A stretch of DNA of 64,000 bases from Dictyostelium discoideum (GCA_000004695.1 CM000151.3:6208001-6272000), one strand, 5' to 3'. Counted from the first letter of the stretch, positions 8,012-11,938 are shown. Program-made: numbers and translations. Notes: a model not told the origin generated them from the letters alone.

Positions 8012-9418
8012 TTATTTTTTAAAGTTATTAATTTTTTCAATTGAATCAAAGAATGTTGTAATATCAGATTTACCTTTTGAGAGTGGACATAATAATAAAA
8101 TTGATTCATTTTTGAAATAATCATTTTTTGGAATAATATTTGAAATATAATTAATAAATACTGGAGTTGGAGAAATTTCAACAAAAACTACTTTTTCACC
8201 TAAATTATTATTTTCAATATGATTAAATAATCTTTTAATAGTTTGATTAAATTTAACTGGGGCTCTAATATTTTGAAAAAGAAATTCATTATCAAATAAA
8301 AATAAATTATTATTATTATTATTATTATTATTATTATTATTATTATTATTATTATTATTATTATTATTATTATTATTATTATTATTATTATTATTATTAT
8401 TATTATTATTATTATTGTTATTATTATTAATATTGTTATTATTCTGTTGGTTACATATAACATCATTAACAGGAACAACAATATCTTCATTATTCAAAAC
8501 ATTGAAAAATTTAGTATTAACACATGACATCATTGGTACTATATTGGAATTTGATGAGAATAAAGAAATTGGATTTTTTAAATAATTAAATTTTAAATTC
8601 ATAATTTCATTTTTAACGATATCTTGTGAAGAAGTATGAAATGATGTTGGTACTGGTATCATTTTAGTGAAAATACCAGCTTTTGAAATTTCGTTTGATA
8701 GATTTAATAAATCCTTATTTTTACCACCAACAATTATCAAATTATCATAACAATAAATTGCAATTTCGATATTTTCATACTTTTTTAAATAATTTTCATT
8801 AAATTCTTTTTCTGTAATATTAATTTTACAAAATCCATTTTCAAATTTATTAAAATTATTATTATTATTATTATTAATATTATTATTATTGTTATTATTA
8901 TTATTATTATTATTATTATTATTATTATTATTATTATTATTATTATTATTATTATTATTATTATTATTATTTAAAGATAATTTAATTGTTTTCTTTAGAA
9001 GAATTGATCTATTATATAAAATATAACAAGCATTTTCAAAATCTAATAAGCCAGAACAATATGAAGATGCAATTTCGCCACAACTAAGTCCTAAATTAAA
9101 ATTTGGTTCAATACCATAATGTTTTAATAATTTAAATAATGATACTTGAAACATGAATAAAATTGAATGAGATAAACATTGTTCATATAATTCTTCGCTC
9201 TTTGTATCATCGATATTTCTTAATTTTTCAATCATTGAGTATCCAAAATATTTTTCATTCAACCAATTATCAATTCTATCCATTTCATTTTTAAAAATAA
9301 TTTCATTATCATATAATTCTTTTGACATACCACTCCAATGAATAGATTGTCCCATAAATAAAAAAATTATATTTATTTTTTCATTTCCTTTTAAACCTTT
9401 TATATTATTTCCATTCAT
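8012..9418 (-). CDS. Stand-alone acyltransferase (malonyl-CoA:ACP transacylase / PKS AT-domain-like) protein, tandem copy 1
   Basis: ATG at 9418. FLFMGQSIHWSGM (the GQG-type oxyanion motif) and GLSCGEIASSY (GxSxG nucleophile elbow). Two long poly-Asn inserts encoded by (AAT)n at 8290-8440 and 8830-8990. Confidence 0.75.
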   Translation of the reverse strand: MNGNNIKGLKGNEKINIIFLFMGQSIHWSGMSKELYDNEIIFKNEMDRIDNWLNEKYFGYSMIEKLRNIDDTKSEELYEQCLSHSILFMFQVSLFKLLKHYGIEPNFNLGLSCGEIASSYCSGLLDFENACYILYNRSILLKKTIKLSLNNNNNNNNNNNNNNNNNNNNNNNNNNNNNNNINNNNNNNFNKFENGFCKINITEKEFNENYLKKYENIEIAIYCYDNLIIVGGKNKDLLNLSNEISKAGIFTKMIPVPTSFHTSSQDIVKNEIMNLKFNYLKNPISLFSSNSNIVPMMSCVNTKFFNVLNNEDIVVPVNDVICNQQNNNNINNNNNNNNNNNNNNNNNNNNNNNNNNNNNNNNNNNNNNNNNLFLFDNEFLFQNIRAPVKFNQTIKRLFNHIENNNLGEKVVFVEISPTPVFINYISNIIPKNDYFKNESILLLCPLSKGKSDITTFFDSIEKINNFKK

Positions 9419-9775
9419 TTTTTATAGTATAAAAAAAAGAAAAAAAAAAAAAACAATAATAATAACATTTAAAAAAAAAACATAATAATAATAAATTAAA
9501 AATAAAAAAAAAAACAATTATAATAACATTTTAAAAAAATAGTTTAATTTATTTATTTTAGTAGTTTTAATACACACACAACACCACGAATTCTGAATAA
9601 TAAAAAAAAATTAAGACACTGTTTTTTTTTTTTATAAAAAAAAATTAATTATTAGATTATTAATTCCTTTCTTTTTTCATTTTCATATTTTTTTTATGAA
9701 AATAAAAAAAAAAGAAAGAAAAAAAAAAACAAAATAAAAAATAAAAAATAAAAATGCTTTTTAAAAATTTATTCT

Positions 9776-11062
9776 TTATATTATTTTAAAGTTTTTAAAT
9801 TTTTCAATTGAATCAAAGAATGTTGTAGTATCAGATTTACCTTTTGAGAGTGGACATAATAATAAAATTGATTCATTTTTAAAATAATCGTTTTTTGGAA
9901 TTATATCCAAAATATGATTAATTAATACTGTGGTTGGAGAAATTTCAACAAAAACTACTTTTTCACCTAAATTATTATTTTCAATATGATTAAATAAACT
10001 TTTAATTGATTGATTATATTTAACTGGAGCTCTAATATTTTGAAAAAGATACTCATTATCAAATAAAAATAAATTATTATTATTATTATTATTATTATTA
10101 TTATTATTATTATTATTATTATTATTATTATTATTATTATTCTGTTGGTTACTAATAACATTATTAACAGGAACAACAATAACATCATTATCTTGATTGT
10201 TATTTAAAACATTGAAAAATTTACAATTCACACATGACATCATTGGTACTATATTGGAATTTGATGAAGAAAATAAAGAAATTGGATTTTTTAAATAATT
10301 AAATTTTAAATTCATTATTTCATTTTTAACGATATCTTGTGAAGAAGTATGAAATGATGTTGGTACTGGTATCATTTTAGCAAAAATACCAGCATTTGAA
10401 ATTTCATTTGATAATTTTAATAAATCACTATTTTTACCACCAACCATTATAGAATTATCATCACAATAAATTGCAATTTCAATATTTTTATACTTTTTTA
10501 AATAATTTTCATTAAATTCTTTTTCTGTAATATTAATTTTACATAATCCATTTTCAAATTTATTAATATTATAAATGCAATTATCAATAATATTATTATA
10601 ATTATTATTTTCATTCAAAGATAATTTAATTGTTTTCTTTTGTAGGATTGATCTATTATATAAAATATAACAAGCACTTTCAAAATCTAGTAAACCAGAA
10701 CAATATGAAGATGCAATTTCACCACAACTAATTCCAAAATTATAATTTGGTTTAATACCATAATGTTTTAATAATTTAAATAATGAAATTTGAAACATGA
10801 ATAAAATTGAATGAGATAAACATTGTTCACTTAACTCTTCACTGTTTTTATCATCAATATTTCTTAATTTTTCAATCATTGAATATCCAAAATATTTTTC
10901 ATTCAACCAATTATCAACTCTATCCATTTCATTTCTAAAGATAATTTCATTTTCATATAATTCTTTCGACATACCACTCCAATGAATACCTTGTCCTACA
11001 AATATAAAAATAATATTTACTTTTTCATTTTCTTTTAAACCTTTTATATTATTTTCATTCAT
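9776..11062 (-). CDS. Stand-alone acyltransferase (AT-domain-like) protein, tandem copy 2
   Basis: Real ATG at 11062 (MNENNIKGLKENEK...); the ORF-track start at 11149 is non-ATG. FIFVGQGIHWSGM, GISCGEIASSY. About 85% identical in protein to copy 1 apart from the poly-N tracts. Identical 3' flank (aaaaatgctttttaaaaatttattctttat) to copies 1 and 3. Confidence 0.75.
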   Translation of the reverse strand: MNENNIKGLKENEKVNIIFIFVGQGIHWSGMSKELYENEIIFRNEMDRVDNWLNEKYFGYSMIEKLRNIDDKNSEELSEQCLSHSILFMFQISLFKLLKHYGIKPNYNFGISCGEIASSYCSGLLDFESACYILYNRSILQKKTIKLSLNENNNYNNIIDNCIYNINKFENGLCKINITEKEFNENYLKKYKNIEIAIYCDDNSIMVGGKNSDLLKLSNEISNAGIFAKMIPVPTSFHTSSQDIVKNEIMNLKFNYLKNPISLFSSSNSNIVPMMSCVNCKFFNVLNNNQDNDVIVVPVNNVISNQQNNNNNNNNNNNNNNNNNNNNNNNLFLFDNEYLFQNIRAPVKYNQSIKSLFNHIENNNLGEKVVFVEISPTTVLINHILDIIPKNDYFKNESILLLCPLSKGKSDTTTFFDSIEKFKNFKII

Positions 11063-11639
11063 TTTTAATAATAATATGTAAACTTTATTTTTTTTTTTTA
11101 AAAAAAAAAAAACAAAAATAATAATAAAAAAAAAAAACAAAAAAAACAATTATAATAATATTTAAAAAAGGTTTAATTTATAATATATATTTTATTTTAA
11201 TTTATTGTTTTATTACACATACATTTTAACTAATTGTTTTATTACAAACACCACTAATTCTTAATAATAAAAAAAAAAAAAAAATGAAAAAGACATAACC
11301 ACTGGTTATTTTTTAAAAAAAAATCCAAAAAAGATAATATAATATCTTTGAGATATTAAAAAAAAACAAGTAGAAAATAAATAAAAATAAATAAAATAAT
11401 TAATAAATATATTTATAATTTATTTATATTTCTTTCAAATAAAAAAAAAAACTTAATTGATTCATAGTAGAAAAAAAAAAAAAAAAAAAAAATGCTTTTT
11501 AAAAATTTATTCTTTATTTAATTTTAAGGGTGGTTAGATGTAAAAATTTCAGCTTTAATGTGGTGGTTTGTAGACTTTTTTTTTAACTTTTATTTTTTTA
11601 TTTCCTATAAGGCTCCCCTTAATTTTATTTAAAGTTTTT

Positions 11640-11938
11640 AAATTTTTTAATTGAATCAAAGAATGTTGTAGTATCAGATTTACCTTTTGAGAGTGGACAT
11701 AATAATAAAATTGATTCATTTTTAAAATAATCATTTTTTGGAATAATATTTAAAATATGATTAACTAATACTGGAGTTGGTGCAATTTCAACAAAAACTA
11801 CTTTTTCACCTAAATTGTTATTTTCAATATGATTAAATAAACTTTTAATTGATTGATTATATTTAATTGGAGCTCTAATATTTTGAAAAAGATATTCATT
11901 ATCAAATAAAAATAAATTATTATTATTATTATTATTAT
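11640..11938 (-). CDS. Third tandem AT-domain paralog, 3' part only (runs into assembly gap)
   Basis: 11640-11938 is near-identical to the 3' ends of copies 1 and 2 (…LFLFDNEYLFQNIRAPIKYNQSIKSLFNHIENNNLGEKVVFVEIAPTPV…) and has the same 3' flank at 11491-11525. It is truncated by the N-run. Confidence 0.5.

Follow-up and report, generated by a model that had tools for sequence, protein, structure and literature searches.

Three tandem stand-alone acyltransferase genes in Dictyostelium discoideum, probably derived from a type I polyketide synthase

The polyketide synthase (PKS) repertoire of Dictyostelium is among the largest in eukaryotes, D. discoideum alone having roughly 40 PKSs with an acyltransferase (AT) in cis, and to our knowledge almost none of their products or accessory enzymes is known. 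A 64-kb stretch of D. discoideum AX4 chromosome 2 (hereafter the window) carries, on the minus strand of positions 8012-11938, three head-to-tail genes (c1-c3) for free-standing AT proteins. A selected and expanding family of free-standing ATs, with at least 10 genes in this species, is unexpected where the PKSs all seem to carry an AT of their own. We found the tandem array to be real and to consist of exactly three paralogous intron-less genes for discrete AT-fold enzymes of ~410-470 aa. The explanation that best accounts for the observations as a whole, to which we would give a probability of about 0.5, is that these are three selected, PKS-derived stand-alone AT genes whose products would act in trans as malonyl acyl-enzyme catalysts.

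The copies sit in 22%-GC DNA and follow one another as a unit of ~1.8 kb, with a start-to-start repeat period of 1767 and 1843 nt (Table 1). Both c1 and c2 are complete in the window; the mechanical open reading frame (ORF) of c2 extends to a TTG at 11149, and the ATG at 11060-11062 agrees with all orthologues. For c3 only the 3' end is present, as its coding sequence (11628-11938) meets an assembly gap in which the remaining 913 nt lie, and the part translated from the window is identical to the C-terminus of the protein P0003 (L001 10001-11227; the contig is described below). The c1 and c2 proteins match the Pfam family PF00698 (Acyl_transf_1) at E = 6e-21 (75.7 bits) and E = 1.5e-23 (84.2 bits), respectively, for a gathering cut-off of 32.7 bits, and the Pfam scan of the two returned no other genuine domain. 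A preliminary description of the locus, made from the sequence alone, had listed three head-to-tail copies (8012-9418, 9776-11062 and a third meeting the gap) with the motifs GQSIHWSGM / GQGIHWSGM and GLSCGE / GISCGE, all of which we read in the ORFs and their translations, apart from the beginning of c3, which it had placed at 11640 while the stop codon begins at 11625. Its figure of about 85% protein identity also agrees with ours, c2 being 85% identical to c3 and 78% to c1 with gaps counted, and the copies being ~88-92% identical to each other across 350 non-repeat codons.

The gap itself adjoins an (ATT)n tract, as had been pointed out, and this had led to the suggestion that the copy number is under-represented and that a long-read assembly should be consulted. 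The locus is present on a gap-free contig of GenBank assembly GCA_054883475.1 (L001), which is 99.6-99.8% identical to the window on either side of the gap. The gap edges map to L001 8331 and 10914, and the hidden stretch (L001 8332-10913) holds the 3' portion of a 1,052-aa gene next to the array, a 297-bp spacer that forms the promoter region of c3, and the 5' 913 nt of c3 itself. As the gap is closed in L001 by one AT gene, of 408 aa, there are exactly three copies and the suggestion of further ones has to be abandoned. The coding sequences of c1 and c2 are 100% identical to L001 13434-14840 and 11790-13076, respectively, and two further D. discoideum strains (FIW and FIR) also have three copies between the same flanking genes. 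What the AX4 reference gap hides is thus 2.6 kb with the missing coding part of one gene and the end of another, and no extra copies.

In order to place these proteins, 1.84 billion proteins were searched with a profile of the family and the matches were re-scored per domain. The AT domains of dictyostelid type I PKSs reached 190-310 bits, against at most 120 bits for any other AT, and AT-only proteins of 345-453 aa were found in D. discoideum, D. citrinum, D. dimigraforme, D. firmibasis and D. purpureum, with an annotation that goes no further than hypothetical or 'MAT domain-containing'. Members of the family in which an Asn run reaches about 20 residues, c1 and c2 among them, are absent from the protein collection though their contigs carry gene calls; the collection seems to leave out proteins with long homopolymer runs, hiding the AX4 annotation of these genes. 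We found no description of these genes in the literature on DDB_G0284373 (a member of the family) or on Dictyostelium stand-alone and trans-acting ATs, nor in a 2025 paper on global PKS profiling. D. discoideum has at least 10 stand-alone AT genes in at least four loci, namely the present array of three, a second cluster of three that lies ~73 kb away on the same chromosome (strain FIW), the DDB_G0284373 cluster of three (five genes in D. citrinum) and a single gene with a canonical GHSFGE.

A bootstrapped neighbour-joining tree with type I PKS ATs, an analysis that the preliminary description had called for, unites all stand-alone ATs of group-4 Dictyostelium in one clade with a 99% bootstrap value, nested among the dictyostelid PKS ATs. 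In the basal subfamily the motifs are still the canonical GHSFGE and GQGAQ, and there is an N-terminal extension of ~85-100 aa, colinear with the PKS KS-AT linker, which is a fossil of excision from a PKS. The family would have arisen once, when a piece of a type I PKS consisting of the KS-AT linker plus the AT became an independent gene. As judged from the tree, it is old and monophyletic and predates the D. purpureum / D. discoideum split, and the profile scores and topology together indicate a group-4 (amoeba-specific) Dictyostelium family derived from a type I PKS. The earlier view of the copies as derivatives of a dictyostelid PKS is therefore right as to their source, and is not upheld insofar as it implied a recent fragment of a present PKS gene, given the old, well-supported clade.

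The syntenic slot of the array holds one copy in D. firmibasis, two in D. cf. discoideum (FIZ), three in D. discoideum (three assemblies) and about five in D. cf. discoideum (FIY; array at L006 6671-14410). A ~1.8-kb unit made of a promoter box, the coding sequence and a short 3' motif would have been duplicated, taking the array from one copy to two and then three, with one lineage reaching about five. AX4 and FIW have intact ORFs, and in FIR c2 and c3 are intact as well. We computed the ratio of non-synonymous to synonymous substitution rates (dN/dS) over the 350 non-repeat codons and compared it with 1 by a binomial test. Between orthologues of different strains dN/dS is 0.06-0.26 (P from 1e-5 to 1e-11), and the genes are therefore constrained; against D. 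firmibasis it is about 0.3, and throughout, save for a pair of D. cf. discoideum paralogues, it is significantly below 1 (P = 6e-3 to 1e-11). Identity between paralogues is mosaic, with values of 73% to 99% in blocks of 150 nt, and the synonymous divergence (dS) between AX4 paralogues (0.11-0.17) is no larger than that between orthologues of different strains (0.08-0.20). The blocks of 98-99% identity suggest that gene conversion may have operated in the array, and the paralogue dS is consistent with it.

With regard to the structure, the AF2 model (pTM 0.66) finds its best Foldseek matches in Pks16 and other PKS ATs, with E = 6.5e-20 to Pks16 and target-normalised TM-scores of 0.76-0.81 to isolated ATs and PksD, and the predicted fold is that of an AT, an alpha/beta-hydrolase core with a small ferredoxin-like subdomain. 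Residues G23, Q24, S112, R137, F237 and H238 are invariant across the family, as are G110, G114 and E115. By alignment, S112 and H238 (S92 and H201 in FabD) fall on the dyad positions of Pks16 and PksD and would form the Ser-His dyad; the malonyl-type Arg, R137 (R117 in FabD), is present and invariant, and the xFHS motif is found as TSFHTS in c1-c3. The elbow His of GHSxG, kept in 23 of 24 dictyostelid PKS ATs, is replaced, the motif being GLSCGE in c1 and GISCGE in c2 and c3, and members of the derived clade have an aliphatic residue (Ile/Leu/Val) or Cys at this position. In the GQGxQ motif the first Gln (Q11 in FabD) is invariant, the following Gly varies between G, S and C, and His stands in for the second Gln, giving GQ[GSC]IHW. 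The signature read from the sequences is accordingly a hybrid one, in which the transferase Arg is kept and the elbow lacks its His as in acyl hydrolases. Malonyl-specific ATs are defined by this Arg, which binds the malonyl carboxylate, together with the Phe of xFHS, and AT-like acyl hydrolases are diagnosed by loss of the Arg, for which they have Gln or His, and usually lack the elbow His as well (PMC11775670). The Phe excludes alpha-substituted units. In the yersiniabactin AT, an H-to-A change in GHSxG left transacylation in place and raised hydrolysis ~7-fold (PMC4186864).

Some of the AT domains of the dictyostelid PKSs themselves depart from the canonical elbow. P0065 and P0114 read GHC[FI]GE, with a Cys at the nucleophile position, and P0123 reads GRSFGE, with an Arg in place of the elbow His. 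The PKSs concerned are possible clients of a trans-acting AT, or they may simply be Cys-nucleophile variants.

From these residues, the most likely function of the array's products would be that of a discrete, trans-acting malonyl Ser-His acyl-enzyme catalyst. His238 would activate Ser112 for acylation by malonyl-CoA, with Arg137 binding the malonyl carboxylate and Phe237 excluding alpha-branched units, and transfer of the malonyl group in trans to the thiol of a carrier protein would follow. Because the elbow His is replaced, a change that makes hydrolysis ~7-fold higher in another malonyl-AT, the acyl-enzyme would probably be more prone to hydrolysis than that of a canonical AT. What we infer in this proposal is the specificity for malonyl, the in-trans transfer and which partner is served; gene structure, copy number, origin, selection and residue conservation are established by the data. 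A role in product off-loading for TE-less PKSs was also considered, and is weakened by the NAD_binding_4 reductase domain in which the nearest dictyostelid PKSs end.

Several observations count against a malonyl transferase kept by selection. No AT-less PKS or obvious client is encoded in the window or within 10 kb of four other loci of the family, and in fact no PKS of any kind was found within 10 kb of these four (three loci from D. discoideum assemblies and, for one of these, the D. citrinum counterpart). An intact AT is already present in the closest dictyostelid PKSs, along with a terminal reductase (NAD_binding_4) domain, so that an AT in trans is not obviously needed. To these must be added the replaced elbow His and the His in place of the second Gln of GQGxQ. 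Constraint between the AX4 paralogues is only moderate (dN/dS 0.27-0.46), and the two D. cf. discoideum paralogues, at about 0.7, are not significantly below 1. The c1 orthologue of strain FIR (L003 11665-12989) has an in-frame stop after ...NEKYFGY, and four of the approximately five FIY copies have frame breaks; these could be pseudogenes or long-read homopolymer errors. Finally, the position of the stand-alone clade within the PKS ATs has low support and its exact sister group is not resolved.

The main rival explanation holds that the proteins are dedicated AT-like acyl hydrolases similar to PksD / PedC, which would strip carrier proteins or CoA of acyl or malonyl groups, for editing or to control the malonyl pool, and would load no extender unit. 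It draws on the aliphatic residue, instead of His, that precedes the nucleophilic Ser as in G(A/S/V)SL, on PksD being the second-best sequence match in the PDB and one of the top fold matches, on the ~7-fold increase in hydrolysis caused by the H-to-A change in a malonyl-AT (PMC4186864), and on the fact that the D. discoideum PKSs already carry their own ATs. However, R137, the Arg whose loss is diagnostic of acyl hydrolases, is invariant, the family has its origin in dictyostelid cis-AT domains rather than in bacterial acyl hydrolases, and PksD barely hydrolyses malonyl groups (PMC11775670). Since the Arg is present and PksD is poor on malonyl, the chemistry would have to differ from that of the known acyl hydrolases, and we consider this explanation unlikely, if the first to be kept in mind. 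A little less probable still, and best taken as speculation, is that group-4 Dictyostelium has evolved its own hybrid-site class of discrete, PKS-derived AT-fold enzymes, which would serve the roughly 40 cis-AT PKSs in trans as malonyl-ACP/CoA hydrolases, as editors or as rescuers of PKS modules with an altered nucleophile, their dosage being tuned by rapid changes in copy number.

It is improbable, in our view, that the proteins are AT-fold pseudo-enzymes devoid of catalysis, for example regulators that bind carrier proteins or PKSs. The lost elbow His, the altered second Gln of GQGxQ, the large disordered inserts and a neighbourhood with no partner gene would suit such a role, but there is strict conservation of the full Ser-His dyad, of the oxyanion Gln and of the substrate Arg, none of which a pure binding protein would need. 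We judge it about as improbable that the copies are decaying or functionless duplicates, that is, PKS-derived fragments drifting to pseudogenes and intact only because they are young. A copy number of 1 to ~5 among close relatives, the FIR stop in c1 and the frame-broken FIY copies, the high dN/dS between some paralogues (0.46-0.72) and the tolerance of long poly-Asn insertions could all be read in that way. Nevertheless, each of the three copies has a between-strain dN/dS significantly below 1, no ORF is broken in AX4 or FIW, nor are those of c2 and c3 in FIR, the catalytic residues do not vary in a family that predates the D. purpureum split, and a conserved upstream box has been kept at each copy.

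This 15-nt box, AACACCAC[G/T]AATTCT, lies 160-205 nt upstream of the ATG of AT copies in D. discoideum strains, and has only two matches in the 64 kb of the window for 0 expected by chance. On L001 it occurs at 9798-9812, 11591-11605 and 13258-13272; in L001 and L002 every one of the three copies has an exact box upstream, in L003 and L006 two copies each do, and neither D. firmibasis nor D. cf. discoideum FIZ has an exact match. The box is a candidate cis-regulatory (promoter) element that was duplicated together with the gene and, as each copy has a box of its own, each appears to be its own transcription unit. On the 3' side, the last ~300-450 nt of the coding sequence are 91-99% identical between copies, and past the stop codon identity drops to 53-77%, the only common element being a ~25-nt motif (TTAAAAATTTATTCTTTAT) that in c1 and c2 lies at or overlaps the stop codon. 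The near-identical 3' flanks mentioned in the preliminary description are thus the 3' end of the coding sequence.

Between the c3 stop codon and its copy of this motif there is a GC-richer (30%) segment of 93 bp (window 11528-11620) that is identical in L001 and partly present in strain FIW. A repeated element is ruled out, as the segment is unique in the window, and its uniqueness and partial presence in FIW indicate that it is simply the 3' flank of c3. Rfam and tRNA scans of window positions 7000-12600, this segment included, were empty.

When a complete dictyostelid PKS of 2,966 aa was compared with the window by tblastn, the matches came only through PKS residues 548-867, which correspond to the AT segment, and no KS, DH, ER, KR or ACP similarity was detected anywhere in the 64 kb; together with the Pfam result, this bears out the earlier statement that each copy encodes an AT domain with no KS/ACP. 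Gene calls in six independent assemblies give separate, single-exon genes. The upstream neighbour has a stop codon of its own, 297 bp ahead of c3, and the flanks contain stop codons and AT-rich spacers. That the ORFs belong as exons to some larger PKS gene, or that c2 and c3 are assembly duplicates, which had been named as findings that would overturn the description, has nothing in its favour beyond the gap inside the array and can be dismissed as extremely improbable, given the AT-only tblastn match, the single-exon calls, the separate upstream boxes and the neighbour's own stop codon on the one hand, and on the other the 5-15% divergence of c1-c3, which occur in the same order and with copy-specific signatures in three independent long-read assemblies.

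The neighbouring genes are unrelated and of housekeeping type (Xrn1, RabGAP, Rab/Ras GTPases, MOSC, CRAL-TRIO, ClC, CCT8 and Dph5), for which reason a biosynthetic gene cluster was rejected, and window ORFs correspond residue for residue to the AX4 chromosome 2 proteins DDB_G0276121 and Dph5 and to parts of CCT8 and ClcC. The 1,052-aa gene beside the array (L001 6362-9703) is rich in poly-Asn, has no Pfam match and is also truncated by the gap; window ORF 12147-14009 represents only part of it, its 3' end and one intron being in the hidden 2.6 kb.

The poly-Asn tracts of the array occur at two sites. Those of c1 are ~39-41 and 46 residues long, somewhat short of the two inserts of about 50 residues first reported, while for c2 the report of about 23 Asn and a unique non-repeat segment was accurate. 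In c3 site 1 is short and site 2 has 11 Asn. At site 2 of c1 there are 41 Asn in AX4, 11 in FIW and 10 in FIR, and D. firmibasis has ordinary non-repeat loops at both sites. The two sites coincide with stretches where the AF2 pLDDT is below 50 (c2 residues 143-168 and 284-333), which border the small subdomain. These data support the view that the tracts are fast-changing (AAT)n microsatellites in two disordered surface loops, and since their lengths differ between copies as well as between strains, microsatellite change after duplication, as originally proposed, holds.

Table 1. Features of the acyltransferase array (positions in the window) and further stand-alone AT loci (positions on the contig named).
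Feature	Position	Strand	Remarks
c1, intron-less AT gene, 468 aa	8012-9418	-	Stop 8012-8014, ATG 9416-9418 (ORF, translation)
c1 poly-Asn site 2	8306-8443	-	Residues 326-371, 4 + 41 Asn
c1 poly-Asn site 1, (AAT)n	8849-8971	-	Residues 150-190, 31 + 7 consecutive Asn
c1 nucleophile elbow, G-L-S-C-G-E	9074-9091	-	Ser112 codon 9083-9085 (translation)
Upstream box AACACCACGAATTCT	9580-9594	+	~165 nt 5' of c1 ATG; candidate promoter element
c2, intron-less AT gene, 428 aa	9776-11062	-	ORF, translation, PF00698
c2 poly-Asn site 2	10073-10141	-	Residues 308-330, 23 Asn
c2 site 1, non-repeat segment	10562-10615	-	18 residues
c2 nucleophile elbow, G-I-S-C-G-E	10718-10735	-	Ser112 codon 10727-10729; aligns with GHSFGE of Pks16
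Upstream box AACACCACTAATTCT	11247-11261	+	~185 nt 5' of c2 ATG; candidate promoter element
c3, 3' end only of AT gene of 408 aa	11625-11938	-	Stop 11625-11627 + 103 codons
Placeholder gap, 100 N	11939-12038		Stands for 2,582 bp (blastn of window against L001)
Further stand-alone AT locus	L007 6359-11174		
Further stand-alone AT locus	L008 8453-13120		
Further stand-alone AT locus	L009 2215-11143		
Further stand-alone AT locus	L010 10001-11362		

The array is real, under selection and uncharacterised; its fold and general chemistry are familiar, and its specific role is the part that is inferred. If the proposed role in trans is true, the family would represent a eukaryotic, independently evolved counterpart of the bacterial trans-acting ATs and acyl hydrolases, and its natural His-to-aliphatic variant of GHSxG could reveal what the conserved His does. 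If the proteins prove to be ordinary malonyl transferases without a special partner, the result would amount to a modest gene-family annotation.

Compared with known systems, the closest relatives by sequence, fold and phylogeny are Pks16 (PDB 9nju) and the ATs of dictyostelid highly reducing PKSs, the best match in a PDB sequence search being the AT region of D. discoideum Pks16 (E = 1e-37). Both groups have the Ser-His dyad, the Arg, xFH(S/T)S and a post-AT segment. The window proteins differ in being free-standing (410-470 aa) with no KS, DH, ER, KR or ACP, in reading G[ILV]SCGE and GQxIHW where the dictyostelid PKS ATs read GHS[FL]GE and GQGxQ[WYF], and in their two poly-Asn loops. Within the same family, the DDB_G0284373 and ACTFIW_004729 clusters and ACTFIR_011091 are of similar size, form small tandem clusters and are 33-40% identical to the window copies, without the long poly-Asn loops; among the other stand-alone subfamilies one has GLSLGE and the basal one keeps GHSFGE.

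SAT (starter-unit:ACP transacylase) domains have a Cys nucleophile in GXCXG and lack the malonyl-binding Arg. A SAT-like nucleophile at Cys113 was rejected for the window proteins, as Ser is central in G-x-S-x-G, the Cys, at +1, gives way to Leu or Phe in other subfamilies, and the proteins possess the Arg.

The bacterial discrete trans-ATs (PksC, DisD) and FabD/MCAT are likewise single-domain AT folds with the malonyl-type Arg and the Phe of xFHS, and the ping-pong malonyl transfer in trans proposed here would be as in the discrete trans-ATs. However, they are not orthologous (at most 120 bits against the family profile), they strictly conserve the elbow His that the window proteins lack, and in trans-AT PKS systems the discrete AT is encoded beside an AT-less PKS, whereas none lies beside this array. 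A FabD/MCAT orthologue was in fact rejected on a TIGR00128 score of 44-59 bits for a cut-off of 260.9, the best NCBIfam models for the window proteins being the AT parts of type I PKSs. With PksD / PedC the proteins share the stand-alone AT fold, the non-His residue before the nucleophilic Ser and the Ser-His dyad, but PksD / PedC have Gln or His in place of the malonyl-binding Arg, which is invariant in the window proteins, and their evolutionary origin is different. The array is thus best described as a lineage-specific, PKS-derived variant of the discrete AT-fold enzyme with an unusual elbow motif.

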